Shown: positions 28,646-47,302 of the stretch, in pieces
Position numbering within the stretch: position 1 is the stretch's first letter
Layout of the letters: the number at the start of each line of letters is the position of its first letter
Source: Lentisphaerales bacterium
GTDB taxonomy: Bacteria > Verrucomicrobiota > Kiritimatiellia > SPBP01
Length of the DNA stretch: 64,000 nucleotides
Assembly (NCBI GenBank): GCA_032123355.1
Contig: JAQBFM010000100.1
Span: 3,944-67,943, forward strand
Reading direction: 5' to 3'
Notes under the pieces: model-generated
The model's input: only the letters and a program-made list of their open reading frames with translations
Told to the model about the DNA's origin: nothing
The model's database searches: none
Program-made: the position numbers and the translations under genes

Positions 28646-30094
28646 ATGCTCAAGTACGCGATTGTTGTGATTCTTGCCCTGCAGGTCGCAATGCCAGCCA
28701 TAGCCCACGAGACCGATATCGCGGCCCGTGAACGAAATAGGGCCATAGTCAATGCCGCCTACGAGGAGAAACTGCGCACGTGCGGCGATGACCCGAACAT
28801 GCTGATCCTCCCGGGACTCGTTGCAGATAGCACCGGCAAAACCGTCAGAATCACGTGCGAGGCAACCGGGATGAAGAAGACGGATCCGGCCGAATTCCTT
28901 GTCATTGCCGAGAACAGTGATCATGACTACGAGGCGTTTGCTGTGTCCCTGGCAAAGCCAAGCGACATTCACAAGGCGCTTGAGTTCATCGGAATCAAGC
29001 CAGGCTCTCCGGCCAACGCCGATAAGCTTCGTTTCTGGCCAAAGGGGGAACGCGTGATTATCACTTTCGAATGGGACATGCCCGAAAATGGTGACGCAGA
29101 TACACCCTCAGAGCGCCGGCGTGCGCGCGCCGAGTCACTCATGATGGACAAAGAAACGGGAACAACCCTGCCGGAAGACGGCTTTGTCTTCGTCGGATCG
29201 GCCTGGCTCGACGATCCCGATCATCCCGGGAAACGGTTCTACGCGGCCGACCGGCTGGGACCGAATGCAATTGTATCTCACTACAACGATCACGAAACAG
29301 TACTGGATGTACCGCGCCAGGCACCGCAGGGCCAGGTCTATGGACGTCAGGTGCCGTCTGATGCATATACTTTCACGAACGCAGGCCAGATAATTGAAGT
29401 GCTCCTTGAGCCTGAGTACAGGGACGGCCGTCAACGAGTCGCGGACATCAGGCTGAAGATCGCACCTGCACCGGGCAGGGAAGACACGGCCTCGACCATT
29501 GCAGATGTCGCCTTTGAACTCATTGAGGGTGAATCCACCGTTCTCGCCGGCGGGAATGATCTCAAAGACATGCTGGCCGTATTCGAACGCCTGGCATCGG
29601 ACGGCCGCGATCCGTTTGTAACCCTGGACCTGGACCCCCGCCTCAAGTTGAAAGTTGCCAAGGATCTCTCCCTGTTCCTGAGGTCTATTGATCGTATCGG
29701 GGGGATACGCATAGAGCCGCCGCCCGCCGGCCAATTGTATTACAAGTCATTCTCGCCTGGCGAAGCGCTTCGCGACAGGGCCAACGCTGTTGTACACCCG
29801 TGGGAACTGAGGCTGATGCAAGACAACGACAAAATCACCGGCACACTGACCTTCGTTGACGACGTCCTGAACGAGCAGACGGGAGAGGTAACTCTGCAGG
29901 TAACCGATTATCCCGCCTCGACCCTCGAGGAAATAGGCCGCGTGCTTGAAATGAAGGACAAGTTTGATCGACCCCTCGGCCTTATCGTCGCCGTCGTGTT
30001 CGCACCGGCAGACATGGAATACCGGGCACTCATGACATACGTCGGGAAAGTGTTGGAGACCCGCCCCACCGTGTGGGTATTCGCCGAAGAGTAA
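28646..30094 (+). CDS. Hypothetical secreted protein (483 aa, signal peptide, no recognisable domain)
   Basis: ATG at 28646 preceded by GGAGG at a 5-nt spacing. Signal peptide MLKYAIVVILALQVAMPAIAHE. The longer ORF from 28469 has no signal peptide or RBS. Confidence 0.6.
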   Translation: MLKYAIVVILALQVAMPAIAHETDIAARERNRAIVNAAYEEKLRTCGDDPNMLILPGLVADSTGKTVRITCEATGMKKTDPAEFLVIAENSDHDYEAFAVSLAKPSDIHKALEFIGIKPGSPANADKLRFWPKGERVIITFEWDMPENGDADTPSERRRARAESLMMDKETGTTLPEDGFVFVGSAWLDDPDHPGKRFYAADRLGPNAIVSHYNDHETVLDVPRQAPQGQVYGRQVPSDAYTFTNAGQIIEVLLEPEYRDGRQRVADIRLKIAPAPGREDTASTIADVAFELIEGESTVLAGGNDLKDMLAVFERLASDGRDPFVTLDLDPRLKLKVAKDLSLFLRSIDRIGGIRIEPPPAGQLYYKSFSPGEALRDRANAVVHPWELRLMQDNDKITGTLTFVDDVLNEQTGEVTLQVTDYPASTLEEIGRVLEMKDKFDRPLGLIVAVVFAPADMEYRALMTYVGKVLETRPTVWVFAEE

Positions 30095-32417: not shown

Positions 32418-32855
32418 CTACGAATCCGGGACTTTACGGCCGGTTATGTGGGTCTCAACAATGTTGATAAGGTCCATGAGCTGATAAGGCTTTGGCAGAA
32501 ACGCCACCGCACCTTCGTCTAAGCATCCACTGACTTCATCGTCCATCGAATAACCCGAGGCAAGGATCACCCGCACGCCCGCGTTGATCTTCTTCATTTC
32601 ACGGAACGCAGTCATGCCGTCCATGTTGGGCATGACCATATCGCTAATCACAAGATCCACATCTTCGTGGTTGTCGCGGTAGAACTGAACGCCATCCGCC
32701 CCGTCAACACATGCGGAGACTTTGTAGCCCATCCGGTTAAGGGCTTTGACTGCAAAGCGACGGACGAGTTCGTCGTCGTCAATTAGCACGACATGCCCCT
32801 TAGTCCCGACTGATGCCGTCCCGTCAATCACGCGCGTATCTCCGTTTTCGGGCAA
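32418..32855 (-). CDS. Stand-alone response-regulator receiver (CheY-like)
   Basis: Receiver fold with DD, D (DLVISDMVMP) and K (LPKP) positions; no output domain. Confidence 0.8.
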   Translation of the reverse strand: MPENGDTRVIDGTASVGTKGHVVLIDDDELVRRFAVKALNRMGYKVSACVDGADGVQFYRDNHEDVDLVISDMVMPNMDGMTAFREMKKINAGVRVILASGYSMDDEVSGCLDEGAVAFLPKPYQLMDLINIVETHITGRKVPDS

Positions 32856-32868
32856 TGGAAACCACGTA

Positions 32869-35394
32869 TCAGACTATATACGTGGCGACGGCCTTTGACA
32901 AGTCCCCTACCCAGAAAGGTTTGGACAGGAAGTCCAGAGCCCCCTCGTGCAGGCATTCAGCAGCAGCACTTTCGGCAGAAAAGCCTGAAACTACGATAAC
33001 TCTTACGAGCGGGTTGATCTTCTTCATTTCACGAAAAACCGTCCGCCCATCAACGTTGGGCATGATCAGATCCAGGATAACCAGGTCGACCTCGCCGCTG
33101 TGCTGCCTGTAGAAATCTATCGCCTCGGCACCATCAGCGCACATGGAAACACGGTATCCCAACTTGCGCAGGGCGCGCGATGCCAGGGCCCTGATGCCCT
33201 CCTCGTCGTCCACAAGCATGACATGGCCCTTGCCGCGAATCATGCCCTCCTCCGACTTAATTGGCGACGCTGCCACCTTCTTGGCTGCCCCGACAGTAGG
33301 CAGGAACAGCGTGAACAGGGTTCCCTTTCCCGGCTCGCTTTCAACAGAAACGCTGCCGTGATGGTTCTTTACACATCCATAAACGGCGGCCAGTCCTAAC
33401 CCCGTGCCTTTCCCGGTCTGCTTTGTTGAGAAGAACGGCTCAAATATGCGCTTCATGACAGTGGCATCAATGCCCGTTCCCGTATCGGACACTTTGACCT
33501 GGAGATACTCACCCGGCGAGATGTCGTGCCCAAACTTCCTGCACATGTCCTTATCTACCATGATCATCGACGTGGCAAACGTTAATGTCCCGCCACTGGG
33601 CATTGCGTCCCTGGCATTGACCGCCAGGTTGAGCAATGCGCCGTGTAATTGCGTTGGATCGCCCATGATCATCGGTCGATCGGCTTGCAGGTCCTGCCGA
33701 ATATCTATGAGCTTGTCGATGCTGTGATGCAGCAGACTTACGACCTCGCGAATTGACTCGTGAATGTCGACGGCAACAACCTGATACTTTCCTTTTCGTG
33801 CATACGCCAGAAGTTGCTTTGTTAATTCGCTTGCCCGCTTCGTCGCCTTGACAACCTCTTCCAGCATTTCCGAAGCGTCCTCGCTCATGCCGTCTTCCAT
33901 CAAAAGCAGTTGCGCATTGCCCTGAATAGAGGTCATGATGTTATTGAAGTCGTGCGCCACGCCACCGGCAAGTTGTCCCATCGCCTCGAGCTTCTGCGAC
34001 TGCCTGATTTGCTCATCGAGCCGCTGTCTTTCCTCTTCCACCAGATGCTTCTGAGTGATATCAGAGAACATTACGATCACGCGTCCGTCACCCAGCGGAC
34101 GAGCCTGAATGTCAACATGCTTGATCTCGCCGTCAGATGCCGCGATTCTCATCGCAAACGGCTCGGAGTCGGGAAAATCTTCCTGGACCATCGTTTGCCA
34201 TTTATGCCAGATCCTGTCGCGGTACGCGGCATCCGGCAGGGCTCGCTCAACGACCGCTTCAACCGCTGCAATGTCTTCCGCGGAATACCCGCTGATCTCT
34301 GTAACTGCGCGATTAGTGTAGAGTATTTCGGTGCCCGCGCCCTGCCCTCCCAGTACCAACACGCCATGAGGGGCGTTCTTCAGCAGCGAGATCAAGCCGT
34401 TCTTCTCCGATCGAAGATTCCCCTCGTTCTGGAGCCGGCTTTCCAACTCGGATTCCAAGCCGTTGACCTGCGCCATCATCTCGGCCATTCGGGTCTTGTT
34501 GCGCGAGACAACCATCAGCAGAAGAAGGAGCATGGCAGCCAAACCGACCGCCGCAACTATAAGTAACACCAGTTTGCCGGGGTCGATGAAGTGTCTTCTG
34601 CGCGACTCAAGCCATTTGTCCTGAAGCCTTGCGAACTGACCCGAAGACATCACCTTGCTCAATCCCTCGTTCAGGCTATCAAGCAGTTCTTTGTTGCCGG
34701 TTCTCACCGCAAGACCATACTCGGCACGAAACAGCGGCTCCCCCACAGCTTCAATGCCGGGTATCCCGCTTTCAGCGACTATGTTGTTCGCCATTCGTCT
34801 GGGAAGCAGTGCGCTGTCATAGCCCTGGTGTGACAAGAGATGCAACGCATCTGTCACAGTATCGACGGGAACAATCCGGTTCTCACCATGCTTTGCCGCG
34901 AGATAGTCTTGCGCCGGCGAACCGCGCCGCACCAGGATCGACCTGCCCCTCGAGTTTTCGAGTGACCTGAATCCGGACCCGGTTCGGACAAAGAGTACAT
35001 AGTCGATGAACATGTGAGGTTTGACGAAATCAGCGTCAACCGGAATCCCCTTCACGTTGGCCAGTCCCGTCAGAATGTCTATCCGGTCCTCGGCAAGGCC
35101 TCTTCTTACTTCATCCCACGGGCCAAGTTCGATACTCACCTCCAGACCCGCTTGTCTTGCTACAGCCGTTAGAATCTCCACATTGAAACCCAGCACGCGG
35201 GAATCTTCATCAAGGTATTCATATGGCCGATACTTGTAGTCGCCGCCCGCTATCAAGACGCTGCGATGTGCCGGCCCGGCCGCTGCCGTGTGCGCAGTCG
35301 TCCCCTGTGCAAAACATATCCCGGCCGCAAATACACACAATGCGGCACAAATGTATACAACGGCTGATCCCAATCTGGCAGTGAAGGTCTTCAT
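32869..35394 (-). CDS. Hybrid sensor histidine kinase with periplasmic solute-binding (SBP_bac_3-like) sensor, TM, PAS, HisKA, HATPase and C-terminal receiver
   Basis: SBP-like N-terminus after the signal peptide, a TM helix (LVLLIVAAVGLAAMLLLLLMVV), the H-box VAHDFNNIMT, G-boxes GTGLGLAAV, and the receiver HVMLVDDEEG...DLVILDLIMP. Confidence 0.85.
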   Translation of the reverse strand: MKTFTARLGSAVVYICAALCVFAAGICFAQGTTAHTAAAGPAHRSVLIAGGDYKYRPYEYLDEDSRVLGFNVEILTAVARQAGLEVSIELGPWDEVRRGLAEDRIDILTGLANVKGIPVDADFVKPHMFIDYVLFVRTGSGFRSLENSRGRSILVRRGSPAQDYLAAKHGENRIVPVDTVTDALHLLSHQGYDSALLPRRMANNIVAESGIPGIEAVGEPLFRAEYGLAVRTGNKELLDSLNEGLSKVMSSGQFARLQDKWLESRRRHFIDPGKLVLLIVAAVGLAAMLLLLLMVVSRNKTRMAEMMAQVNGLESELESRLQNEGNLRSEKNGLISLLKNAPHGVLVLGGQGAGTEILYTNRAVTEISGYSAEDIAAVEAVVERALPDAAYRDRIWHKWQTMVQEDFPDSEPFAMRIAASDGEIKHVDIQARPLGDGRVIVMFSDITQKHLVEEERQRLDEQIRQSQKLEAMGQLAGGVAHDFNNIMTSIQGNAQLLLMEDGMSEDASEMLEEVVKATKRASELTKQLLAYARKGKYQVVAVDIHESIREVVSLLHHSIDKLIDIRQDLQADRPMIMGDPTQLHGALLNLAVNARDAMPSGGTLTFATSMIMVDKDMCRKFGHDISPGEYLQVKVSDTGTGIDATVMKRIFEPFFSTKQTGKGTGLGLAAVYGCVKNHHGSVSVESEPGKGTLFTLFLPTVGAAKKVAASPIKSEEGMIRGKGHVMLVDDEEGIRALASRALRKLGYRVSMCADGAEAIDFYRQHSGEVDLVILDLIMPNVDGRTVFREMKKINPLVRVIVVSGFSAESAAAECLHEGALDFLSKPFWVGDLSKAVATYIV

Positions 35395-35544: not shown

Positions 35545-37053
35545 CTAGAGCGCCACGTCAATCGCCAGGTCCTTCGCATCCTTTGCATCTTCTGCCTTGT
35601 TCGCGGCCTCCTCAACCCTGGCGTAAGTAGGAAGGTACCTGTAGTACACTTCCAGACACAGACAGGCCATGGTCGTGTCATAGACATCGCAGGCTTGATG
35701 CGTTGTTCCGCTTGCCCAGTGACCGTCATCAGCCTGGTTCTCAATGAGCATCGGCAGCATCGCCTTGTTCCATTTGGTCCACATGGCACCGCCGTGCTGG
35801 AACTTGGCCTGGGTCATGTAATACCAGCCATACGTGCCGAAGTCGTCTCCCTGCCAAGCCGGTGTCCTGTCGGCATATGCCTGCAACGACGATACCACCG
35901 CGCCGTCCTGGGCATGACCGACCAGCTGGAGGCAAAGCGCCCCGGCACCCGTCAATGTCGGCCTGTTGCCCACGCCGTCGTAGCCGAACCCGCCACCAGC
36001 CTGAGCAAAGCTCTTGACGCCAGCAACGCTCTTCTCAATGGATTCCTCGAGCCCATCGATATAAATACCTGCCAGCTTGGCCGCCTTGAGGGCCTGCACC
36101 TGCCAGCTCGTGACCGACATATCCCGGCGCCCTGCATCGTTGTAATCGTAGTTCCAAGCGCCGCCGGCCTGCTGGCCACCGGTGATAACCTTGACTGCTT
36201 TGATGACCGGGTCCTTGAGCATGACCATCTTGGTCATACCATAGGACTCCGCAAGCGCATACGTTGCAATAGCATGGCCGTAGACGTAGTGATCGCCCGC
36301 TTCCTTGAATCGGCCATCTTCGCCCTGGGCATACAGGAGGTATCTGATCGCGTTCTCAACCGTCCGCCCGAATTCGGGTGATGCCGGCGTTTCACCGTGT
36401 GCCATGTAGCACAACAGTGCCAGCCCACACATCGCCGTTTTTGACGGTCCGGCCCACGACCCATCCTCCAACTGATTTGCCTTCAGCCATCGCAGGGCCT
36501 TCAACACCGCAGTAAGACTGCCTCCTCCGCCGTGCTTGCCGACCGCGGCCGCTCGACCACCGCCTGTACGTGCACCATAAAGACCCCTGAGGACCATCGG
36601 GCTCGTAATGATGTCCACCGCCTGGGCAACCAGGTCATCCGTTGATTCATCACCAAACGACGGGGCCTCGTTAACAATGGTCGTCACATCGGCATCCTGA
36701 AGCTGATGGCTCGGGTCCATCGATACCACCTCTTCGACCGGCTCGGGCTCGGGAAGATCGTCCTCAATGATCTCTTCGAGTTCCTCGGTCTCGGGGTCAA
36801 CCATCACCACGTCCAACGTCGGCGGCGCAAGATTGCGGCTAATGCCAACAAAGAGCAGCAGCAGCAGGAGTACGGCTACGCACACGGCAGTTGATACGCT
36901 GGACGAACTGAAGAACCTCTGCATTTCGAACACGGCCCATTTATATTCGCCGGAATCTTTCGGAGCTTTCAGCCCCGCAAATACCTTCCGCCATTTCTCA
37001 CGCCACGACTCTTCTCCGATCTCGATCTGTTGCATCTGATAATCTTCCAGCAT
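35545..37053 (-). CDS. Membrane-anchored prenyltransferase/squalene-oxidase-repeat (alpha/alpha-toroid) protein, copy 1
   Basis: Start MLEDYQ... preceded by AAGGAGGA. ~60-aa cytoplasmic head (EESWREKWRKVFAGLKAP), TM helix (AVCVAVLLLLLLFVGI), acidic Pro/Glu linker, then QxxDGxW repeats (QLEDGSWAG, QGEDGRFKE, QQAGGAWNY, QADDGHWAS). No CGEQ thioester motif. Confidence 0.7.
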   Translation of the reverse strand: MLEDYQMQQIEIGEESWREKWRKVFAGLKAPKDSGEYKWAVFEMQRFFSSSSVSTAVCVAVLLLLLLFVGISRNLAPPTLDVVMVDPETEELEEIIEDDLPEPEPVEEVVSMDPSHQLQDADVTTIVNEAPSFGDESTDDLVAQAVDIITSPMVLRGLYGARTGGGRAAAVGKHGGGGSLTAVLKALRWLKANQLEDGSWAGPSKTAMCGLALLCYMAHGETPASPEFGRTVENAIRYLLYAQGEDGRFKEAGDHYVYGHAIATYALAESYGMTKMVMLKDPVIKAVKVITGGQQAGGAWNYDYNDAGRRDMSVTSWQVQALKAAKLAGIYIDGLEESIEKSVAGVKSFAQAGGGFGYDGVGNRPTLTGAGALCLQLVGHAQDGAVVSSLQAYADRTPAWQGDDFGTYGWYYMTQAKFQHGGAMWTKWNKAMLPMLIENQADDGHWASGTTHQACDVYDTTMACLCLEVYYRYLPTYARVEEAANKAEDAKDAKDLAIDVAL

Positions 37054-37373
37054 GATCCCTTCCTCCTTGTTGGCACACACCTAACCTGATAATCGACGTT
37101 CTATACCTTAAACGCTACGCACGCGACATTTCTTAGCTACCCGGCAAATATCTTCACATGTGGGGTTGCGGCCATAGTGCCTTACCATCCCAACGCCAAC
37201 GAAACGAACGACCTAAGTGGCTCTACCAACACGCATTGTGGCTATCCGCCGGACAGGACCGCCTTCACCTGGGCCGATTCGGCCACCAGCGGACGCATCA
37301 GAAAGAAAGGCCGCCGATGATGCGCAATCAGCTGACGGTGAGAGGATCTGATCGCCGCATAAAAACGGCCTGA

Positions 37374-37820
37374 TTACGAGCTGCCACGGGCAGGCGGCAG
37401 CGTGACAACCGAAAGGTTGACCAGGCCCACTTTGGCGCAGAGATCGAGAACCGCAACAAGGCTGTAGTGACTGGAGGCCTCCGCACATTGGATGAGAATT
37501 GTCTGCCTCGAACTCCGGCTCGCTATCTTTCTCAGGTTTTGCTCCATGACATCCAGCCGCGTCCGCATCTGGTTCAGCATGAACCTGTGATTCTTCAGGA
37601 CCGTAATGCGAACCATGTCTTCTATCTGCTCCTCTGGACGCGCATTGGGGTCCGGCGCGGGACGAAACACATCAAGGTGACCGATCACGTCTATCGGCCT
37701 GAGCGTAACAATGAAGAAGATGAGGAGCTGAAACACTACATCGATCATAGGCGTCATTGGCATCTCCGCCTCTTGATCACCGGTCTTTTCTCGGATCTTT
37801 CTCTTTCGTTTCCTTGCCAT
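37374..37820 (-). CDS. exbD: Biopolymer transport protein ExbD/TolR
   Basis: MTPMIDVVFQLLIFFIVT N-terminal TM signature; ~148 aa. Confidence 0.85.
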   Translation of the reverse strand: MARKRKRKIREKTGDQEAEMPMTPMIDVVFQLLIFFIVTLRPIDVIGHLDVFRPAPDPNARPEEQIEDMVRITVLKNHRFMLNQMRTRLDVMEQNLRKIASRSSRQTILIQCAEASSHYSLVAVLDLCAKVGLVNLSVVTLPPARGSS

Positions 37821-37833
37821 GGATCGACTCCCG

Positions 37834-38277
37834 CTACCTGCCGCCGCCGCGATTCTCGGTGGCTGCGTGTTTCATTGCAGCAAACTTGATTCTGTATAAA
37901 CCGACGCGCGCGCACGCATCCATCGCGCGCCTGATATACTTGTGAGTAGCGTGCACATCACCCCGGATAAGGATTGGTATGTTCGCGCCGGCTCGTCTGA
38001 CAGTATTCTTGAGCACCATGTTCAGCCCTCTCAGATCATAGGGCGCACTGCCAATATAGTACCTGCCGCGACGATCGACCTGGACCGTTATTTGCCTGGG
38101 ATCCTTCCTCGGTTCCTCGCGCGAATAGGGAGCTACCGGAAGTGTAATAGCCTCCAGAATGGATTCCTGATCCAGGTTGACCGTAACAATGAAGAATATG
38201 ATGAGCTGGAACACGACGTCGATCATCGGCGTCATGTTGATTTCCGCTTCGTACTGTTTCTTGCGCTTCCTGGCCAT
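37834..38277 (-). CDS. exbD: Biopolymer transport protein ExbD/TolR (second copy)
   Basis: NMTPMIDVVFQLIIFFIVT signature; ~147 aa. Confidence 0.85.
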   Translation of the reverse strand: MARKRKKQYEAEINMTPMIDVVFQLIIFFIVTVNLDQESILEAITLPVAPYSREEPRKDPRQITVQVDRRGRYYIGSAPYDLRGLNMVLKNTVRRAGANIPILIRGDVHATHKYIRRAMDACARVGLYRIKFAAMKHAATENRGGGR

Positions 38278-38313
38278 ACCGTCGCTCCCGTGTCTTACCT
38301 GAGTCGCGTACGA

Positions 38314-39093
38314 CTATTCTTCAATGACCTCAACGTTTCTCAGATCCTTGATCAACTCCAGCGTAATGGCTTCCATTCTCAGGATGATTCTGTTCGCCTT
38401 GTTTCGGAATACGTAGAAAGCCGCTACCGCCGGGACGGCAATGGACAGGCCCGCCGCCGTGGTATAGAGCGCCTGCGAAATGCTGGCGGCCAGCACGCTG
38501 ATTACGGCTGCACCCATTTCGGCCAGGTTTGCGAACGCCATGATCATGCCCTGGACCGTGCCGAGCAGACCAAGCATGGGAGCCAGACTGCCTACGACCG
38601 AGAGATATGCGATTCTCTGCATCAATGTCTCGCTCTCGAGGTCAGCCGAGACACCAACCGCTTCCTGAATGGTCTCAAACCCTTCCTCAACATGACTGAA
38701 ACCGGCGGTCAGAATGTTCGCCATGGGACCCGGATCATCTTCACAACTGCTCAGTGCCTTGAGGATGTCGCCCTGCTCCATCGCCTCCGTCACCCGGTCG
38801 ACAAGGCCCTGCGGCATAATCTTGGTGGGCCGCACGGTGATTGAGCAATCGACAATGAACCATACGCATGCAAACAAGGAGCCGAATATGGCTATCCAAA
38901 GGATAACGCCAAGGAATCCGCTGCCTACGACGACCTGCCAGAATCCAACGCTGCTGCCGCTAGAAGGTCCTTCAGTTTCTTCGATTATAGGAGCCGACGC
39001 ATCGAGCTCAGGGCCCTGCGCCGATGCACTGTAAACACCCATTACTATCCCGGCAACAAGGAGTACCGACACCAGAAGAAGCCTCTTTCTCAT
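38314..39093 (-). CDS. exbB: MotA/TolQ/ExbB proton-channel protein
   Basis: Signal/TM N-terminus, three TM helices and the conserved C-terminal TolQ/ExbB block (LYTTAAGLSIAVPAVAAFYVFRN). Confidence 0.85.
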   Translation of the reverse strand: MRKRLLLVSVLLVAGIVMGVYSASAQGPELDASAPIIEETEGPSSGSSVGFWQVVVGSGFLGVILWIAIFGSLFACVWFIVDCSITVRPTKIMPQGLVDRVTEAMEQGDILKALSSCEDDPGPMANILTAGFSHVEEGFETIQEAVGVSADLESETLMQRIAYLSVVGSLAPMLGLLGTVQGMIMAFANLAEMGAAVISVLAASISQALYTTAAGLSIAVPAVAAFYVFRNKANRIILRMEAITLELIKDLRNVEVIEE

Positions 39094-39156
39094 TCGTCAA
39101 CCTTCCCCTTTCTTCTCTTCTATTATTACTTGGTAATCAGTCTGACTCAGACAACT

Positions 39157-39969
39157 TTATCCACTACGACTCTGCTTAGAATACAAACTTCCAGGGAACT
39201 CGTCCACCAGTCTTTGTCTAAATTTGTCGGCACGAGGATCCGACATCGATTTCAGCGTCTGCCACGCCTTGAACAGGGCCTCCGCCTGAACACCTCTCAC
39301 ATCCTTGAACAGGATAATGACCCGAAAATAGCCATCGATAAGGGCGTCCGTCTTCTTCCCCTCGTCAACGTACAGGTCGCCACGAACAATGTGGGCCGTC
39401 GCAGCTACCGGCCGACTGCCGTTCTCAATTGCATCGGTCAATGCTTTCTTAAGTCTCGCCGACTGCCGGTTCTCAAGCAGGGCCTTCCAGAAAAAGCCCT
39501 GCAGCGCATCGGGCACCGTGGAGGTGACCCTCTCGTAGTCGTCGCAGACCTTCATAATACCGGCGGTATTGTTGTCCTTGAGATAAGTCGGGAACACCAG
39601 GAGATACGCCTGGACGTCCCATACGAGCATCTTGTACTGGAACGCAATATTCTCCATGCCCCTTGTCGCTTCAGGGCTTGGCGATCCGCCCCTGAATTCC
39701 CGGGCATACTTGTCAAAATCCGACGGCTTCGGAATCCTTAGGCCCTCGATGTCCTTCCGAGCGATTGGAACAGGAGTATTGCCTATCATGACGTAGTACT
39801 GGTCTGACGCGCCACGATATGTGATCTTTTCACATTTCTTCCACGGCTCCCCGAATTTCTTGTAGGCATATTCGTTCCTCTGCGCCCAGGCGGAAACCGC
39901 AACGGTCAACGCCGCGATAACGAGGATGCCGCATGTAATCCGACTACTCATGCGTCTACTGGTTTTCAT
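39157..39969 (-). CDS. Hypothetical secreted protein (signal peptide), first gene of the exbB-exbD-exbD array
   Basis: Signal peptide ILVIAALTVAVSAWAQ; no recognisable domain. The exbB start follows 63 nt after its stop. Confidence 0.55.
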   Translation of the reverse strand: MKTSRRMSSRITCGILVIAALTVAVSAWAQRNEYAYKKFGEPWKKCEKITYRGASDQYYVMIGNTPVPIARKDIEGLRIPKPSDFDKYAREFRGGSPSPEATRGMENIAFQYKMLVWDVQAYLLVFPTYLKDNNTAGIMKVCDDYERVTSTVPDALQGFFWKALLENRQSARLKKALTDAIENGSRPVAATAHIVRGDLYVDEGKKTDALIDGYFRVIILFKDVRGVQAEALFKAWQTLKSMSDPRADKFRQRLVDEFPGSLYSKQSRSG

Positions 39970-40045: not shown

Positions 40046-43000
40046 CTATTCCTGCTCCTGATCATCGCCGTCCACCGCGACTTCATCGGTAGCCCGGGGC
40101 TCAGGTGATGCGCCACCATTCTTTCTGGCCTCTTCGATCCAAGCATTGGCTCTGTCTACATGCTTGCCGGCCGGGAACAGCTCCTTATACCGTTCTGCAT
40201 ACTCCATCACATCTGACCATCGACGAGCATCTATCTCTATGACCATCAGCTCTGGAAAAGCTTCTTCGACATATTGCTTCACTCCGGGCTTGGACACATC
40301 GGTCAGCACGAACAGACGGAACAGTGCCGCGTTGAGATCCTCACGGGCACGCTCGAGACCTTCCATGTCGTTATACGTCTCCGCCCCCTTGATCTTCAGT
40401 TTGTAGACTTTTACCGACTCCCACGCTATCTTGGCTTTCAACTCGTCCGCCTTGTCTTTCATGGGCGAATTGATGTCACGAGTGAACTTGTTCACCTTGT
40501 TGAGAGTCTTGATCGCCTCATTGAACAGATCGAAGCGGGCGCCTTTATCCTCCGTCTTTGCTCCGACTTCGGCATACGCATGGGCCAGCATGAAACATGC
40601 TTCGAGCGTATAGCCGCTCAAGGGGTACTTTTCGAGCAGCACCTTGAAGCTCTCGATCACGTCCGAGTACTTCTCGTCTGCGTAGTAGATCTTGCCCATG
40701 GCGAACAGGGAGTTCTCTATCACGCTCCGATCGGCAACGGGATCGGACGCCAGCTGGAGCGCCTGGGCATACAACTTTGCGGCAAGCTCGTTCTGTTTGT
40801 GCTCAAGCATCATGCCGGCAACATGAACAAACTGCCTGGCAGAGTATGCGTCGGGGTGGTCGAGCATGCCCATCACGGACTTCTTGGCCTCAGTAGCCAT
40901 GCCCATCTCCATCAGCGCCTCGATGCGGAGGAAATGCATGCTGCGGGCCTCTTCGCTGTCGGGGTATTGGCGACCGAGCGCTTCGAACGTCTTCGTGGCT
41001 CCTTTACTGTCTTCCAGGACCATTTCCAGGATGCCTTTTCTCAGGAGCGCGCCGGGCGACATCTTTGACTGCGGGTATTTCTCGACAAACTCGCCGAAGA
41101 ACTTGATGGCAGCAAGCTGGAAGTTCTTGACCACCCGTTCCGGCTCCTTGACCTGCGAACACGCGGCAGCCATGTTGAACAGCGTGGCTTCGAGAAGATC
41201 CTTGTTGCGCAGGATAACGGCGGGCTCCTCCTTCTTGGCATCGTCCTGTGAGCGGATCCAGTCGGCAACACGCCTGTATATTCTGACGGCCTCAGTCGGT
41301 TTGCCGGCCTTGGCAAGTGAATCCGCGATCCTGTATTCCGCGTATGCACGGGAGTAACCGGGCGGCGAAACCTTGACGAACTCACTGAGGGTCGCCAGTT
41401 CCTTTTCCCGTTCGTTCTTCTTGCCCCAGATATAGGCTATTCCGCTCAGGGCGGCGTCGTAGCCTTTGTGTTCCGGCTTCACCAACATGAAATACCCCAG
41501 CGCCTTGTCGAGGTCTCCCTGCTCGCGTATCCGGTTGGCACGGATGAGAACAACCGTGATCCATTTCGGATGGTTCGTAAAACTGTTTATGTAGTCCTCA
41601 TAAAGCTGGGCGCTCGCAGGCGCATCGCCGGCATCATCCCTGGCCTTTGCCAGAGACAGAATCGTGTTGCCCGCCGCCTCGGCGTAGCGGCGATTCTTCC
41701 GATACCGTTCAATGATGAAACCCGAAACGCTCCGGGCAAAGTCTTCTTCGCCCTGTTCAGCATAGCATTGGGCCAGGTCACCCATTATCTGGATGGCGCC
41801 TTCCGAGAAGTTGGCAAAAACTGACAGTATATCCTCGTACCGCGTCACCGCCGATTCATAGTCCCGCGCAAGCATAAGCGTTCTTGCCTCGCGCACCTGG
41901 ACCAGCATCGCGTCTTGGAGGCGCAGATCCTGGGGAACCCTGTAGATGATGTCGTGTCGGTCAAAGTAGTTGAAGATATCCTGCGCCTTGCGCCCGGCCT
42001 GGGGTGCCCACATCGTCGTCGGAAACCGCACAAACACATTGTAAAGATGCTGGGCCGCCTCCTGGAGCATCAGCATACCGTCTTTTTCCTGGCCCTTCTC
42101 GACCAGTTCCATGCCCGCTTCCATCTGTATGCTGCCGAGCAGGTACCGGCACTCGGCCATCGGAGTCAGCCTCATCATCTCCGGATCATTGAGTTTTTCG
42201 AGCTGCTGGTGAATCTGGGTCAGGATGGGGAGATAGTCGCGAATGATCTCCATGGCTTTCTCCGGCCCCTCCTCCAACAAGGCTATCTGCGCAATCACGA
42301 CCACAGTCTTGCCGAACCAGATGCCCTGATCCTTCCACTGAACCTTCTCGGCATATTCCTTGGCCTTCAGTATGAACTCACCCCTTTTCCCGCCCTCTGA
42401 GCCCATAGCGAGTTTCATGGCAAGTTGGGCCATCTCCGCCCATATCTGGAGCTCTTCGTCTGGGGTCGGCGCCGCCCTGAGCGCGTAACCGTAGGCGACT
42501 AAGGACTTCTCGTCTTCCATCATGAAGCGAAGCATCTGTGAATACTTGTAGGCGACAGACTTGTAGAATGCTTCCTGATCGTCCCCCGGACTGGTATATC
42601 TTCCGAAGAAATCGTCGTAAAGCTTCTGGCATTCCTTGTGCCGGCCAACCGCGTAGAAGGCATCCGCAGCATCCAGAGCAGATTGCCAGCTCTCAAAGGA
42701 ACTCAGCGACATTTCGCCGAGTACGGCCTTGGCCTCGTCATACTTCTTCTGATAGATCAGGCTCTTGATTTCCAGGCCTATTACGCGTTCCCGCCCACCT
42801 GGAATCCTTGCGATCTTGTCCGTTACCTGCTTGGCGTAGTCGGGGAAGCCGAGACGAATAAGGCCCGAAACATAGTCGTGCTCTTCCTGTATCCGCTGTT
42901 CGGGAGTCTTCTGGGCAAAACACAACCCCGCTGCCTGCAACGTCAGTAACAGGCAAGCGCCTAATCTCACAGCAGAACGTGGCAGTGGCAGAAAACACCT

Positions 43001-43078
43001 TGGTAGCATGTTCAACTGTTTATCCGAAAGCCCGTGTATGGTCAACATAAAAACTCCCGGTGCGTTCCTGCGTGGCAA
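40046..43078 (-). CDS. Large secreted TPR-repeat protein (~990 aa)
   Basis: Signal peptide (MLPRCFLPLPRSAVRLGACLLLTLQAAGLCFAQ; start probably the internal Met at ~43009), then TPR-like helical repeats throughout and an acidic C-terminus. Confidence 0.65.
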   Translation of the reverse strand: MPRRNAPGVFMLTIHGLSDKQLNMLPRCFLPLPRSAVRLGACLLLTLQAAGLCFAQKTPEQRIQEEHDYVSGLIRLGFPDYAKQVTDKIARIPGGRERVIGLEIKSLIYQKKYDEAKAVLGEMSLSSFESWQSALDAADAFYAVGRHKECQKLYDDFFGRYTSPGDDQEAFYKSVAYKYSQMLRFMMEDEKSLVAYGYALRAAPTPDEELQIWAEMAQLAMKLAMGSEGGKRGEFILKAKEYAEKVQWKDQGIWFGKTVVVIAQIALLEEGPEKAMEIIRDYLPILTQIHQQLEKLNDPEMMRLTPMAECRYLLGSIQMEAGMELVEKGQEKDGMLMLQEAAQHLYNVFVRFPTTMWAPQAGRKAQDIFNYFDRHDIIYRVPQDLRLQDAMLVQVREARTLMLARDYESAVTRYEDILSVFANFSEGAIQIMGDLAQCYAEQGEEDFARSVSGFIIERYRKNRRYAEAAGNTILSLAKARDDAGDAPASAQLYEDYINSFTNHPKWITVVLIRANRIREQGDLDKALGYFMLVKPEHKGYDAALSGIAYIWGKKNEREKELATLSEFVKVSPPGYSRAYAEYRIADSLAKAGKPTEAVRIYRRVADWIRSQDDAKKEEPAVILRNKDLLEATLFNMAAACSQVKEPERVVKNFQLAAIKFFGEFVEKYPQSKMSPGALLRKGILEMVLEDSKGATKTFEALGRQYPDSEEARSMHFLRIEALMEMGMATEAKKSVMGMLDHPDAYSARQFVHVAGMMLEHKQNELAAKLYAQALQLASDPVADRSVIENSLFAMGKIYYADEKYSDVIESFKVLLEKYPLSGYTLEACFMLAHAYAEVGAKTEDKGARFDLFNEAIKTLNKVNKFTRDINSPMKDKADELKAKIAWESVKVYKLKIKGAETYNDMEGLERAREDLNAALFRLFVLTDVSKPGVKQYVEEAFPELMVIEIDARRWSDVMEYAERYKELFPAGKHVDRANAWIEEARKNGGASPEPRATDEVAVDGDDQEQE

Positions 43079-43221
43079 GTTGAAGATTGATCCGATCCCT
43101 GTTCTTACTACGTTTTCCGGGCTGAACTTCTTTGGGAGCTACGCTGATCGATGTTGTTTGGCATCAAAATACGAGTGTGCTAAGATCACCATGGTTGACA
43201 ATGATGATCGGGCCGACTCAC

Positions 43222-43587
43222 ATGAATGCAATGAATCACTGCAGGTCCCAACGCCGAGCAGGCGGATTCACTCTTGTCGAAATAATGATCGTGGTCGGCA
43301 GCATCGGGCTCCTGTCAATGATGGCCGTGCCGGCCTTCATTCGCGCGCGTGACGAAAGCAAGGTGTCGCGTTTCATCAACGACATGCGCGTGGCTACCGA
43401 AGCCTTCCATCTCTACAACCTGGAGAACGGCGACTATCCGCCCGATGCTATGCACGGAGAAATGCCGGTGGGTATGGCGGGCTATCTGGCCAAGATGGAT
43501 GTGAATGGCGATTCCAGCATTAGCATACCCGGTCTCCGCTCCGCAGCCAGCCATGAGGCAATTGAAGCTCCCAGAGATCGGCCGTAA
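43222..43587 (+). CDS. Prepilin-type N-terminal cleavage/methylation domain protein (minor pseudopilin/T2SS GspG-like), 121 aa
   Basis: Leader MNAMNHCRSQRRAG, then the class III signal GFTLVEIMIVVGSIGLLSMMAVPAF with a Glu at +5. Confidence 0.65.
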   Translation: MNAMNHCRSQRRAGGFTLVEIMIVVGSIGLLSMMAVPAFIRARDESKVSRFINDMRVATEAFHLYNLENGDYPPDAMHGEMPVGMAGYLAKMDVNGDSSISIPGLRSAASHEAIEAPRDRP

Positions 43588-43715
43588 ACAACTGATAATG
43601 CCAACAATTTGACGAATTGTTTGCGGGACATGACCAAGAGGTCGCGACGAGAGGGCCTCGGCAATTGTTGGATTCCAGACCTCCTGACATAGGGGCATGA
43701 CATTTTGTCCGCTTT

Positions 43716-44543
43716 TCACCGTTTTCTGACCTCGGCAACGTCGTAGCGCAGGATCAGATTGGTGCCAGGAAACGTGGTCGCCGTCGCGTTCAGTTCACCG
43801 CAGAGCGTTGCGAGCACACGGGTGCGGTGCCGTGAACTCAGCGGTGCGACCAGAACCCGTAGTTCCGTCTCGCTCACCTCAATATCCGCCGCAGATGCGA
43901 GCGCCGACTGGACAAGCGTACGGCCCTCGTCCTCTGCGCGCTTGTAGTGTGGCGTGACCAGTCGAAAGAGGTCGCTCTCCACTTGATAGGCGACCATCTT
44001 CAGCAGACTGGTGAGGTGCATGCTCTCGGTAGCGAGTTTAACCACTGGCCCGGCAACAACCTGCCCGGCGGGGAACGGCTGCGCGTCGGAGTTCCAGTGT
44101 TTTGCAGCGCTTCACCGCTGCTCGGGCCTGCCGAAGCTGTCTGTTCAGCATGTTCCACTTTGGATTGGGAACTTCGCGCGCGGGATCGTCAGGTTCCGTC
44201 TCGTACTCGACAAGTGCATCTGCGCCACGTTCGTGGTGCGCAGCCCGAAAAACGCCGGACCGATGCTGCCGTAGACTTCATGGGCAGAGTCGATGACGTC
44301 ACTGGCAACTAACACGGGAATAGCCAGGAGCACTCCGGCGCCAGGAATCGACGTCCCCGGACGAAAGAGCTGAGCCGCGTCATCAAGTAAACCCAGGTAT
44401 GCCATGAGTCGGTCGAACCGGCGGTCCGACGGATCGCGGTCCATCGAGGCGATCAGCAGCAGGTCGGATAATGGAAAAACGGACAGTTTTGGGTCCGAGC
44501 CCTCGAAGCAGCGGGTGGGGCTTGTCACGGGAACTTCAAACAA
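43716..44543 (-). pseudogene. Frame-broken gene remnant(s); the N-terminal piece has an IDSxxxxYGS motif reminiscent of the first catalytic-D region of DDE transposases (identification tentative)
   Basis: Two same-strand ORFs in different frames (44543..44145 and 44045..43716), with competing short ORFs on the other strand. No RBS or start context, unlike the tightly packed genes elsewhere. Confidence 0.3.
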
Positions 44544-44786
44544 CCGTTTGGACCAATATCCACGGCCTGTGCGTGATAATGGAGGTGGAAACTGTCAGAG
44601 CGAAAAAGACGCCCTATGTCAGGAGGTCTGGAGTCAGGAAGGGCTGGCATGCACGTAATGAGGTCGCGGGTATCGTGCCGACGAAACTTACACCAGATGT
44701 TTCTGCGAACCAATGGGTTGAGCCATCTATTGCTGGCCCGTCCGGCTCACACGAAGACCGCATTCCCGCGGTTTCCTGACTCTCGA

Positions 44787-45644
44787 TCAGTACGCGCGAC
44801 GGCCATCCGGGTTCAGTATTGTTGCCGTAACGGTCATATCAGTGCTCCGCGGATTGCCCGCGCTGTCATAACCCACCAGGAACTTCTGGTAGAACTCACT
44901 GTCCCTTGCCAGACCGCCGATGTGAACGGTTGCACCATCCGCTACTGTCACGTGGGTTGATACACTCACGAACTGCAATCGCGTGGTTCCATTCTTCACG
45001 CGCACAACCATCTCGGGCGTCAGGGTCAGCGAAATCAGACGGCCGTTCCCGATAATCTTCGGCTCTACACGAAGCCACGAACCCGTCGCCCGAACAATTT
45101 CCTCCCTGTCGAAATCGCCCTGTCGAAAACCATAGTCTTTCAGCCAATCAAAGAACGGCACCTCGTGACCGATAACGAGACTTGCTTGCTTGCCATCCGC
45201 AACTACGACCGACTGCCCCGCCGCTGAACCGGAACTGGAGGAAAGATCATTCTTCACCTGCGGCCTGACCTTTATGCGATAGCCGGTGCCGTCCTGTTTG
45301 ACAATAACGCCACCAGTTCCGGTGATCGAGGCGCCGGAACTCTTCTGAGAGCCGACCCCTGTGACAGAGAAATCAATACGTATGTTGTGCGGTGGCGGAT
45401 CGATTTCTGCCAGCAGTGCAGCAACTCGTGTATGTGTTTCGGGGGTAGCGACAACCAGTATCTTCCCGCCCCCCCCTCCTTCTATCACGTTGCCGTATTC
45501 TGCCAGAACCGCAGTGACTGCCTTGAGAAGATCTTGCGTCTTCTCCTGGTTCAATGGGTAGGCTTTGAACGTCTGCGCCTGCTGGGCAAAGGCGGGCAGT
45601 GCCCACATCGCTAGAACTACTATCACTGCAACGGATCGTTTCAT
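44787..45644 (-). CDS. Secreted protein with weak secretin-N/STN-like N-terminal domain and Gly/Ser-rich linkers
   Basis: Signal peptide MKRSVAVIVVLAMWALPAFAQ; KILVVATPETHTRVAALLAEID resembles secretin N-domains. Contains a GGGGGK run and SSSSGSAAG. Confidence 0.35.
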   Translation of the reverse strand: MKRSVAVIVVLAMWALPAFAQQAQTFKAYPLNQEKTQDLLKAVTAVLAEYGNVIEGGGGGKILVVATPETHTRVAALLAEIDPPPHNIRIDFSVTGVGSQKSSGASITGTGGVIVKQDGTGYRIKVRPQVKNDLSSSSGSAAGQSVVVADGKQASLVIGHEVPFFDWLKDYGFRQGDFDREEIVRATGSWLRVEPKIIGNGRLISLTLTPEMVVRVKNGTTRLQFVSVSTHVTVADGATVHIGGLARDSEFYQKFLVGYDSAGNPRSTDMTVTATILNPDGRRAY

Positions 45645-45784
45645 GTATCCCTGTTGATACAAGTGTAGTCGGATCGGCATTCCTTTGCACTAAGAATCCC
45701 GACATGAGATGCGTTCTTATAGATGCAACACGCAAACACGGGAAGCGGCTGGCCGCCGTCCTGCAAAAAGAAAAGGAGGCGGCT

Positions 45785-47302
45785 ATGATAATAGGTAACC
45801 TGACGAGTCTGGTAACTTCTGAGGAGTCATGGTGTGCGAAGTTTCGGCGAATTCTTAGAGGTCTTCGCGCGCCTCGGGGTTCCGGTGACCACAAGTATGC
45901 CGTGACCGCCGTGCAGCGTATTATCGGTCCTTCATCGGCATCAACGTTCACATGTGCGATCGTGCTTCTGCTGCTGATTCTCTTCGTCGGAATTCACAGG
46001 GAAGTTCTGCCGCCAAGCATAGCGCCGGTAATCCTGCGTCAGGAAGTTCCACCGGAGCTCGATCGACCCGAACCACAAAAGATTGAAACAACACTGCCGG
46101 ATAATCACTTAGAGTATCTGACGGTAGATCTACCCTCCCAGTCCATCGCGGAGAACGCGGATGTTACAGACGTACCTGACGCAATGGCACGCGAGGCTGC
46201 GTTTGGCGAGACCTTTGATCAGGCGCTCGCATCATCAGACAGCGTGGCTATCCTTCAGAATCTGCGACGTGGTTCACGGACATCCAGAACCATCGGCCAG
46301 GCAGCGCACAAGGAGGGGTCTTCCGAAAGCCTGCCGGCAGTGCTTGCGGCCTTGCGCTGGCTGAAGGCAAACCAGTTGGAAGACGGGGCGTGGGCTGGGC
46401 CTTCAAAGACCGGAATGTGTGGGCTGGCTCTTTTGTGCTACATGGCACATGGCGAAACACCGGCATCTCCTGAATTCGGACGGACTGTTGAGAACGCGAT
46501 CCGGTACCTCCTATATGCTCAGGGCGAAGATGGCAGGTTCAAGGAAGCGGGCGATCACTATGTCTATGGACATGCGATTGCAGCGTATGCACTCGCGGAG
46601 TCTTACGGCATGACGAAGATGGTCATGCTCAAAGATCCGGTCGCAAAGGCGATCAAGGTGATCATCGACGGCCAGCAGGCGGGCGGCGCATGGAACTACG
46701 ACTATAGCAAAGCAGACCGAAGGGATATGTCGGTCACGGGCTGGCAGGTGCAGGCACTCAAGGCGGCCAAGCTGGCAGGTGCCTATATGGATGGGCTTGA
46801 GGAAGCCATCGAGAGAAGTGTTGCAGGCGTTAAGAGCTTTGCGCAGGCAGGCGGCGGGTTCGGCTATGACGATGTTGGAAACAGGCCGACGCTGACGGGT
46901 GCCGGCGCACTTTGCCTCCAGCTGGTGGGTCACGCGCAGGACGGAGCAGTGGTGTCCTCGCTGCAGGCATATTCCGACAAATTGCCGGCATGGGAGGCAG
47001 ATGACTTCGGGACATATGGCTGGTACTACATGACGCAGGCCAAGTTCCAGCACGGCGGCGTCATGTGGGATGAATGGAACAAGAACATGTTGCCGATGCT
47101 CATCGAGAATCAGGCTGATGACGGTCATTGGGCCAGCGGCACAACGCATCAAGCATGCGATGTCTATGACACGACCCTTGCCTGTCTGTGCCTGGAAGTC
47201 TACTACAGGCATCTGCCGACATACTGGAGAGTCGCAGAACTACAGGCGCAATTCGAAGCTGTGAAGGACGGCAAGGATATCGCGATAGAAGCGGCACTGT
47301 AA
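45785..47302 (+). CDS. Membrane-anchored prenyltransferase/squalene-oxidase-repeat (alpha/alpha-toroid) protein, copy 2 (inverted paralog of 35545..37053)
   Basis: Start MIIGNL... preceded by AAGGAGG. Same layout as copy 1 (EESWCAKFRRILRGLRAP head, TM CAIVLLLLILFVGI, linker, QxxDGxW repeats). ~90% aa identity to copy 1 over ~340 C-terminal residues and ~85% nt identity in the compared stretch. Confidence 0.7.
   Translation: MIIGNLTSLVTSEESWCAKFRRILRGLRAPRGSGDHKYAVTAVQRIIGPSSASTFTCAIVLLLLILFVGIHREVLPPSIAPVILRQEVPPELDRPEPQKIETTLPDNHLEYLTVDLPSQSIAENADVTDVPDAMAREAAFGETFDQALASSDSVAILQNLRRGSRTSRTIGQAAHKEGSSESLPAVLAALRWLKANQLEDGAWAGPSKTGMCGLALLCYMAHGETPASPEFGRTVENAIRYLLYAQGEDGRFKEAGDHYVYGHAIAAYALAESYGMTKMVMLKDPVAKAIKVIIDGQQAGGAWNYDYSKADRRDMSVTGWQVQALKAAKLAGAYMDGLEEAIERSVAGVKSFAQAGGGFGYDDVGNRPTLTGAGALCLQLVGHAQDGAVVSSLQAYSDKLPAWEADDFGTYGWYYMTQAKFQHGGVMWDEWNKNMLPMLIENQADDGHWASGTTHQACDVYDTTLACLCLEVYYRHLPTYWRVAELQAQFEAVKDGKDIAIEAAL

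Follow-up and report, generated by a model that had tools for sequence, protein, structure and literature searches.

An ExbB-ExbD-toroid gene cassette as a candidate for an undescribed type of force transducer in the cell envelope

We analysed a 64,000-nucleotide stretch of a Lentisphaerales bacterium genome (assembly GCA_032123355.1, contig JAQBFM010000100.1, positions 3,944 to 67,943; hereafter the window), whose minus strand encodes a tetratricopeptide repeat (TPR) protein, a secreted 270-residue protein, an ExbB/TolQ-like subunit, two ExbD/TolR-like subunits (ExbD1 and ExbD2) and, where TonB would be expected, a membrane-anchored protein headed by a helical toroid. This six-gene cassette suggests a cell-envelope force transducer of an undescribed kind, in which a motor driven by the proton-motive force would be coupled to an arm with a new head domain, a reading to which we assign a probability of roughly 65%. 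Its new elements are the toroid head and what we call the type A anchor, the kind of transducer itself having been proposed only in 2025.

The original prediction, made from the nucleotide sequence of this stretch, had placed the secreted protein, exbB, exbD, exbD and the toroid gene in that order on the minus strand, and open reading frames (ORFs) and Pfam matches bear this out. The TPR gene, a second toroid paralogue, a strand resembling the D-box of TonB, a cytoplasmic module and orthologues elsewhere with the S-x3-H-x6-L-x3-S (SHLS) motif go beyond it. The features are as follows.

40046..43078, minus: TPR protein, periplasmic, with signal peptide, 1010 residues; many Pfam TPR families; first gene of the cassette
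39157..39969, minus: secreted 270-residue protein, cassette-specific, weakly TPR/BamD-like; signal peptide, weak Pfam TPR_16 match
38314..39093, minus: ExbB/TolQ-like proton-channel subunit, 259 residues; Pfam MotA_ExbB, 1.5e-28
37834..38277, minus: ExbD/TolR-like subunit 1 (ExbD1), 147 residues; Pfam ExbD, 1.5e-25
37374..37820, minus: ExbD/TolR-like subunit 2 (ExbD2), 148 residues; Pfam ExbD, 9.6e-21
37054..37373, minus: spacer between exbD2 and the toroid gene, 320 nucleotides; AAGGAGGA 7 nucleotides before the ATG
35545-37080, minus: toroid ORF, 511 residues; SQHop_cyclase_C at 18.9 bits, under the 26.1 cut-off
35545..37053, minus: toroid-headed anchored protein, 502 residues from the ATG at 37053; putative force transducer
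36910..37014, minus: cytoplasmic type A module, residues 14-48, EESWREKWRKVFAGLKAPKDSGEYKWAVFEMQRFF; conserved family-wide, predicted helical
36841..36909, minus: single transmembrane helix, residues 49-71, SSSSVSTAVCVAVLLLLLLFVGI, from a hydropathy scan; no histidine, no SHLS motif
36790..36825, minus: D-box/motor-box-like strand PPTLDVVMVDPE, residues 77-88, from the family consensus
36517..36789, minus: acidic Pro/Glu-rich disordered linker, then a conserved pre-toroid segment (SPMVLRGLYGARTGG...), from AlphaFold2 and the alignment
35623..36516, minus: (alpha/alpha)6 toroid domain, residues 180-477, with QW-type repeats
35548..35574, minus: extreme C-terminal strand motif KDLAIDVAL-COOH, from the family pattern
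45704..47302, plus: second toroid paralogue, 532 residues (P0004); 67.8% identity over 510 residues by tblastn

Conservation of the cassette and its motor

We read gene order by tblastn, with the window proteins as queries, in the best 77 of at least 592 encoding stretches (one genome per species), picked by toroid similarity; all 77 loci come from Kiritimatiellia, Lentisphaeria/Victivallales or generically labelled metagenome-assembled genomes (MAGs) of Verrucomicrobiota or the Planctomycetes-Verrucomicrobia-Chlamydiae (PVC) group. The full order TPR, 270-residue protein, exbB, exbD1, exbD2 and toroid was observed in 44 of the 77, so that the co-occurrence of anchored toroid proteins with exbBD, a check proposed with the original prediction, extends well outside the window. 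The TPR gene lies upstream in about 40 related loci, the gene for the 270-residue protein sits between it and exbB in 35, and the order of exbD1 and exbD2 is unchanged. Across the conserved loci the toroid orthologues are only 35-45% identical, and the ExbB orthologues 45-71%.

Toroid genes start a median of about 80 nucleotides past exbD2, with overlap or a gap of at most 21 nucleotides in 16 of 49 pairs and start/stop overlaps of 4 and 8 nucleotides among them. At one locus (L019) a rearrangement has put the toroid gene ahead of the other cassette genes, where it is still adjacent, and at another (L064, 9524-11611, plus strand) a stand-alone exbD (135 residues) and toroid gene (549 residues) form a pair with a 30-nucleotide gap and no exbB, flanked by opposite-strand genes in a genome that also holds the main cassette. 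These short gaps and both rearranged loci argue against pure inheritance of the arrangement. In the window itself the spacer, foreseen at about 320 nucleotides with its own ribosome-binding site, measures 320 nucleotides from the ATG at 37053, with AAGGAGGA upstream. This ATG is probably the true start, since the resulting 502 residues equal the length of the 99%-identical protein P0001. The spacer matches no Rfam family, its predicted fold is unremarkable (z = 0.31) and it offers no convincing candidate for a promoter or terminator; its single weak hairpin (37332-37313) was no better than chance.

All three motor subunits scored above the Pfam gathering thresholds (ExbB 99.6 bits, ExbD1 90.1, ExbD2 74.6), and all missed the NCBIfam equivalog cut-offs for exbB, tolQ, exbD and tolR, so that none is placed in a subfamily. 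The best NCBIfam model for ExbB was tolQ (3.3e-26, compared with 1.5e-13 for exbB, both under cut-off), and its closest solved chain was E. coli TolQ (1.1e-14, compared with 5e-10 for an ExbB chain). ExbB carries an N-terminal signal peptide and extension and keeps GTVxG in its second transmembrane helix (here GTVqG) and TTAxGL in its third (here TTAaGL), in common with E. coli TolQ. The best model for ExbD1 was tolR, and this subunit aligns with Serratia and E. coli ExbD from the transmembrane aspartate (TPMIDV) through the last beta-strand. The two ExbDs share only about 34% identity. Alignments to Protein Data Bank (PDB) chains indicate that both retain the aspartate, within TPMIDV in each, and the D-box-binding last strand.

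The large TPR protein matched the NCBIfam models tol_pal_ybgF (4.2e-20) and BamD (1.6e-19), each under its own cut-off, and P0122, which is 80% identical to the 270-residue protein, carries PF13525 YfiO. A word-index search of a large protein database returned 2 matches to the 270-residue protein, a number uninformative on its distribution.

Anchor and head of the toroid protein

The toroid protein has the TonB-like position and topology ascribed to it at the outset: its N-terminus lies in the cytoplasm ahead of one transmembrane helix, and the acidic Pro/Glu-rich linker PETEELEEIIEDDLPEPEPVEE follows. Due to the lysine- and arginine-rich stretch of about 48 residues ahead of the helix, the N-terminus does not read as a cleaved signal peptide, and the cytoplasmic N-terminus together with the long disordered linker counters the possibility, raised at the time, of a soluble enzyme released from a signal anchor. 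Residues 77-166 scored below 50 in the predicted local distance difference test (pLDDT) of the AlphaFold2 model and are accordingly disordered in prediction; the length of the linker varies in the alignment, which also contains a conserved VKSPxIMKGxYGSR block.

Just outside the membrane the protein carries a strand reading LDVVMVDPE, for which the family consensus is V-E-V-T-[VI]-[MVI]-E-P-E, placed 6-10 residues past the transmembrane helix. We scored this motif in 200 family members and, as controls, in 8525 same-length windows from neighbouring proteins. A strict pattern was present in 88 of the 200 members and in 3 of the 8525 controls, and a loose pattern in 134 of 200 (67%) compared with 6.3% of controls; the strand is conserved while the remaining linker varies. 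By its sequence, the window strand PPTLDVVMVDPE resembles the TonB D-box and TolA motor box. The TonB D-box, QPISVTMVTPAD, is experimentally defined, is delimited by prolines and is captured by the ExbD dimer through beta-strand addition (PMC10907165); the equivalent segment of E. coli TolA is SSIDAVMVDSG (PDB 9k49_H), and the same element has been termed the motor box and described as near-universal in TolA and TonB (PMC12204202).

Two anchor types precede this strand. Type A, found in the window, combines a cytoplasmic module (F-x-E-K-W ... G-L-K-x-P-x-x-S-G-E-Y-K-x-A) with a helix that has no histidine, in keeping with the expectation that the window helix would deviate from S-x3-H-x6-L-x3-S. 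Type B reads W-G-P-x-G-S-x3-H-x6-L, an SHLS-type motif as in TonB and TolA. We counted 149 members with type A and 28 non-type-A members with S-x3-H-x6-L, the full SHLS motif occurring in 6; only 1 of the 149 type A members has S-x3-H-x6-L. Type B toroid proteins occupy the same exbD-linked, mutL-flanked site (for example at L008, L011, L035, L045, L050, L055 and L072), and the two types interleave when toroid domains are arranged in a neighbour-joining tree drawn without support values, which suggests that they are interchangeable at one locus. Both anchors thus look like alternative solutions to one task, which in TonB and TolA is docking to the motor. At several of these sites and others (L011, L017, L031, L045, L050 and L072) mutL is followed immediately by another exbB-exbD pair, of a short type, about 3 kb past the toroid gene and with no transducer gene behind it; this pair occurs mainly in genomes with the SHLS-type toroid anchor.

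The type A module is predicted to be helical, with pLDDT values of 69-87 in 10-residue blocks across residues 14-48, and appears to be particular to this family. A hidden Markov model of the module matched toroid proteins alone in 1.3 Mb of loci. Among 1.84 billion representative proteins it was found in 87, the full-length matches being toroid-sized; of 15 short or odd-length matches inspected, all but 2 were toroid proteins or fragments. Of these two, one bears the PA14-like head described below and the other looks chimeric. A type A anchor fused to RecT (P0286) is a probable chimeric assembly and was set aside. When the N-terminal anchors were searched against Pfam at E values up to 10, no TonB- or TolA-related match was returned.

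For the head, an AlphaFold2 prediction based on a 20-sequence alignment gave a confident helical toroid at about residues 175-470, the C-terminal 300 residues forming an (alpha/alpha)6 toroid. This fits the repeat toroid originally proposed for this position, and three QxxDGxW-type repeats are present (QLEDGSW at residue 194, QGEDGRF at 243 and QADDGHW at 440). Pfam and NCBIfam scans of the 511-residue ORF returned only the weak SQHop_cyclase_C match, and profile likeness to squalene-hopene cyclase does not extend beyond the QW repeats. The family is large: of the candidates tested, more than 2500 proteins scored E <= 0.001, nearly all of them 500-570 residues long and of the same architecture.

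We evaluated the fold families put forward for the toroid by looking for their defining motifs. A terpene cyclase was rejected for the window protein, which has no D.DD or D.D[DE] and reads RRDMS in the equivalent conserved region. The CGEQ motif of alpha-2-macroglobulin and complement thioester domains is present in 0 of 206 members, and the LanC-type motifs WCxG and CHG in 3 and 0, neither being found in the window protein. The (alpha/alpha)6 fold and QW repeats of the cyclases are present, whereas DxDD, LanC and CGEQ signatures that would place the protein in one of those families do not occur in the window protein. Conserved instead are family-specific invariant residues (AHGET, EFG, YGWYYxTQA, WxxWN and LEVYYRYLPT). 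Because the known catalytic motifs are missing, we read the toroid as a probable binding head rather than an enzyme of known type. About 29 residues past LEVYYRYLPT the family ends in the pattern DD[IV]x[IV][DE][IV]x[LIKR]-COOH, which might pair with a partner by beta-strand addition.

Gene content, conserved order, topology and fold are established here, as are the motifs and their conservation; physical coupling to the motor, transmission of force and an ExbD heterodimer are what we infer. In the proposed mechanism, the six genes would form one cassette specifying a proton-motive-force motor and its own periplasm-spanning arm. A TolQ-like ExbB pentamer would surround an ExbD1/ExbD2 heterodimer, and the 502-residue protein would be the arm, held at the motor by its N-terminal anchor: the module and transmembrane helix in the window genome, and the TonB/TolA-type SHLS helix in other genomes. 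The periplasmic domains of ExbD1 and ExbD2 would grip LDVVMVDPE just outside the membrane, the acidic Pro/Glu linker would project the arm and the non-catalytic toroid at its end would bind the target, with the two secreted TPR proteins probably acting as periplasmic scaffolds. Our best guess for the target is a glycan or a glycan-bearing component of the envelope or outer membrane, and for the role, handling or uptake of polymers rather than cell division.

Paralogues, neighbours and the weighing of readings

Toroid proteins also occur away from the motor. The second window paralogue has the same type A module and transmembrane helix as the exbD-linked copy and adjoins no motor gene, and orphans of this kind are mostly recent duplicates of the exbD-linked copy. 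In some orphans a zf-HC2 anti-sigma domain stands ahead of the type A module, transmembrane helix and D-box-like strand (L010 1132-, 4.5e-7; L027 9722-; L033; L036; L060; L065 14408-; P0248 and P0257), and such fusions may be motor-linked trans-envelope signalling proteins. A further protein, P0281 (439 residues), joins the type A anchor and linker to a PA14-like head (Pfam PA14, 2.7e-4, below cut-off), and this one protein is encoded on two independent contigs (L083 35-1354 and L084 59-1378). The paralogues and anti-sigma fusions fit a family of alternative heads on a shared motor, comparable to multiple TonBs.

Several other genes lie around these elements. Divergent from the second toroid gene is a small secretin-like protein of 297 residues (44787-45680, minus; Pfam Secretin, 1.7e-9), which we rejected as a cassette component since it is not conserved beside toroid genes in other loci. 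Near it is a pilin-like ORF with an N-terminal methylation motif (43132-43587, plus); the stretch between the secretin-like and TPR genes (43600-44700) holds short broken ORFs only and is possibly a decayed element. Past the toroid gene one usually finds mutL, then serS and tilS. In most related loci mutL comes directly after the toroid gene; in the window the two are separated by genes for a response regulator and for a hybrid histidine kinase whose periplasmic domain is of the SBP_bac_3 type (32418-35394, minus). A conserved protein of about 480-540 residues with no Pfam match (28469-30094, plus; family F7, in 18 loci) is in many loci encoded between mutL and serS, but on the opposite strand.

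The remaining large ORFs of the window are housekeeping or TPR genes (SecA, FtsK, FtsH, Lnt, MutL, a hybrid kinase and others). As originally stated for the 64 kb, no canonical TonB or TonB-dependent receptor was detected: the window ORFs scanned, including every ORF of at least 535 residues, contained no TonB_C, Plug or TonB-dependent receptor domain, and a TonB_C protein used as tblastn query gave zero matches in the window. Neither tolB nor pal was present among the window ORFs scanned, and neither was found in the 77 loci. A related genome tells a different story on one point. A Kiritimatiellia MAG (JAWODU) that holds a toroid cassette (L063) also holds a canonical short set of exbB (208 residues), exbD (133 residues) and tonB (189 residues; TonB_C, 5.1e-15) beside mur/mraY-type genes (L047, 6365-8075, minus). 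The claim that canonical tonB is missing thus survives for the window but does not extend to at least one related genome, which suggests that the cassette is additional and not simply a replacement for a missing TonB.

Several points weigh against the coupling of the toroid protein to the motor. All of the support for the transducer reading is computational. The D-box resemblance consists of a short alternating hydrophobic motif only, the window helix has no SHLS histidine, and contact of the type A module with ExbB is putative; ExbB columns that track anchor type (79, 83, 102, 144, 163 and 230) proved inseparable from lineage and phylogeny and were not used as evidence. The 320-nucleotide gap with its own strong ribosome-binding site does not make co-transcription evident in the window, and as the cassette lies inside a housekeeping block (mutL, serS, tilS), part of its conserved order may be inherited. 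Of 86 toroid genes counted across the loci, 28-33 stand apart from any motor as orphans, and the second window paralogue has a degenerate D-box (SIAPVILRQE). No outer-membrane channel or carbohydrate-active enzyme gene is conserved in or beside the cassette, which encodes no outer-membrane partner. The idea of an ExbBD-energised system with a non-TonB effector nevertheless gains computational support from co-occurrence, structure and docking motifs.

A broader version of the force-transducer reading is that in Kiritimatiellia and Lentisphaeria interchangeable heads, mostly toroids but occasionally PA14 domains, with some anti-sigma fusions, ride on TonB/TolA-type anchors at a dedicated ExbB-ExbD1-ExbD2 motor, the toroid being the missing TonB/TolA equivalent that, by pulling on a glycan or an outer-membrane partner, would import or sense polymers without TonB-dependent receptors. 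We regard this version as tentative and rather doubtful as a whole. If true, it would mean that force transducers on 5:2 motors come in three functional classes, the other two being TonB/TolA and the recently proposed type headed by von Willebrand factor A (vWA) domains, and its second, much larger effector family would make the D-box/SHLS anchor a portable coupling module. It would also supply candidates for outer-membrane energisation in Kiritimatiellia and Lentisphaeria and a stand-in for TolA where none has been found. The two anchors at one locus, an SHLS helix or a histidine-less helix with its module, would then offer a natural experiment on how arm and motor dock.

Narrower functional readings are less probable still. 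The cassette could stand in for TonB and power the entry of polysaccharide fragments across the outer membrane through a channel other than a TonB-dependent receptor, with the toroid as a glycan- or channel-binding head, a more specific form of the original idea that we consider unlikely. The fold class is shared with glycan barrels (epimerases, GH76, GH88 and AprG), the same anchor occurs with a PA14-like head, the paralogues have expanded like multiple TonBs, and the window paralogue adjoins the small secretin-like gene. Kiritimatiellia and Lentisphaeria are major degraders of sulfated and other complex polysaccharides. A lead in the same direction is the Akkermansia MUL1 locus, needed for mucin uptake, which has mul1A (Amuc_0544) and Amuc_0546. 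Against this, the secretin neighbour is not conserved, the cassette has no conserved channel or carbohydrate-active enzyme gene within or beside it, and no sugar-binding residues were identified in the toroid.

It is also improbable, somewhat more so, that the cassette is the Tol-Pal equivalent of these bacteria, in which the toroid would replace TolA, the TPR protein would play CpoB/YbgF and TolB and Pal would be encoded elsewhere, serving outer-membrane stabilisation or constriction. The proximity of ExbB to TolQ and of ExbD1 to the tolR model, the below-cut-off tol_pal_ybgF match of the TPR protein, and the housekeeping context with essentially one main cassette per genome are all as such a system would have them, as are the tolB-pal genes of Kiritimatiella glycovorans without identifiable TolA and the 'tolQ-tolR-???' entry for the MAG of L029 (PMC12204202 supplement). 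Yet tolB and pal are missing from the window and the loci, a canonical exbB-exbD-TonB_C set coexists with the toroid cassette in one MAG (L047, L063), and the TolA of Victivallis vadensis indicates that some Lentisphaerae do have TolA. The diverging paralogues, anti-sigma fusions and PA14 variant have the look of a family diversified towards sensing or uptake, not of one division machine. The fold class, PA14 variant and paralogue expansion are why we lean to polymer uptake or sensing over Tol-like maintenance.

The weakest reading, that the toroid protein is an independent anchored periplasmic enzyme or binder of glycan, lipid or isoprenoid that stands beside exbD by inherited synteny and makes no contact with the motor, draws on the window gap with its separate ribosome-binding site, the many orphans, the housekeeping synteny, the usual enzymatic role of (alpha/alpha)6 toroids and the many invariant polar and aromatic residues of the domain, but is made quite improbable by a D-box-like strand at fixed distance from the transmembrane helix, SHLS helices in same-locus orthologues, exbD2-toroid start/stop overlaps in several genomes, the adjacency kept after the L019 rearrangement and in the L064 pair, the lack of any known catalytic motif, and a sister vWA cassette with the same layout.

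Comparison with known systems

Among proteins of similar fold, the toroid shares its architecture with the (alpha/alpha)6 barrels of class II terpene cyclases, prenyltransferase beta subunits and thioester domains, and its QW repeats with the cyclases. Identity to these barrels is 12-17%, the toroid has no DxDD, CGEQ or LanC zinc motifs, and it differs further in being periplasmic, tethered and marked by family-specific invariant residues. In our literature searches nothing relevant turned up that pairs ExbD with a prenyltransferase, a squalene-oxidase repeat or a terpene cyclase.

As a system, one lead concerns Akkermansia muciniphila, where in MUL1 an ExbD-type 'biopolymer transporter' (Amuc_0546) lies two genes from mul1A (Amuc_0544, 'mucin transport'). 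This locus encodes a TPR protein plus ExbB/ExbD and may be a related cassette with a mucin-uptake phenotype.

TonB, to begin with the better known arms, is matched by the position of the gene after exbD, the single transmembrane anchor with cytoplasmic N-terminus, the D-box-like strand and the Pro/Glu-rich linker, and in some toroid family members by the SHLS helix. It differs in that the toroid protein has no TonB_C (PF03544), the window no TonB-dependent receptor and the window helix no SHLS histidine, whereas the cassette includes a second ExbD paralogue and a pair of TPR proteins. The TolQ-TolR-TolA/CpoB system is approached by ExbB, nearest to TolQ, by LDVVMVD, which is nearly the IDAVMVD of E. 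coli TolA, and by the YbgF-like TPR match. Here the differences are that TolA domain III is missing, tolB and pal are not adjacent, the cassette has two TolR-like genes, and its TPR protein, which scores under the family cut-off, has roughly four times CpoB's size. The supplement of PMC12204202 lists Kiritimatiella glycovorans with tolB-pal and no identifiable TolA, uses the TolA of Victivallis vadensis, and records 'tolQ-tolR-???' for Lentisphaerae RIFOXYA12_FULL_48_11, which is the MAG of our locus L029, where a toroid gene follows exbD. Neither that paper nor its supplement mentions toroid, prenyl or squalene-type effectors.

For a long time the only arms known to lead from ExbBD/TolQR-type motors to the outer membrane were TonB and TolA, until a vWA-headed arm was proposed in 2025 from the genomics of PVC bacteria seemingly without either. 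Tichowtungia aerotolerans (Kiritimatiellota) is reported to be without TolA and TonB, and vWA effectors were proposed as its force transducers (Mol Biol Evol 2025, PMC12204202). We examined its locus (L080), which encodes a 938-residue TPR protein, a 262-residue secreted protein, ExbB (247), ExbD (143), ExbD (146) and two vWA proteins (476 and 474), and observed the same layout in two further vWA cassettes (L081 and L082). At L081 (4862-18898, plus) two vWA-type cassettes stand in tandem with differing effectors, of 524 and 792 residues. No homologue of the vWA transducer was detected in the window or the 77 loci.

The two kinds of cassette differ in sequence throughout. Their motors are paralogous, with ExbB 35% and the ExbDs 26-33% identical, against 45-71% among toroid cassettes. 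The Tichowtungia TPR protein gave no tblastn match, and its match to the TPR-family hidden Markov model (T_TPR938, 5.2e-35) probably reflects generic repeats; the protein of about 260 residues in the vWA cassette has no detectable similarity to the window 270-residue protein. Most toroid proteins, in addition, have the histidine-less helix and cytoplasmic module, which are absent from the description in PMC12204202, and the type B toroid helix is SHLS-type, as in the vWA effectors. The vWA cassette nonetheless belongs to the same phylum-level group and matches the window cassette gene for gene, from the TPR protein to the anchored effector. Both effectors combine an anchor with cytoplasmic N-terminus, a transmembrane helix, a motor box, a disordered linker and a globular head unlike that of TonB, the head being a vWA domain in Tichowtungia and a terpene-cyclase-like (alpha/alpha)6 toroid in the window.

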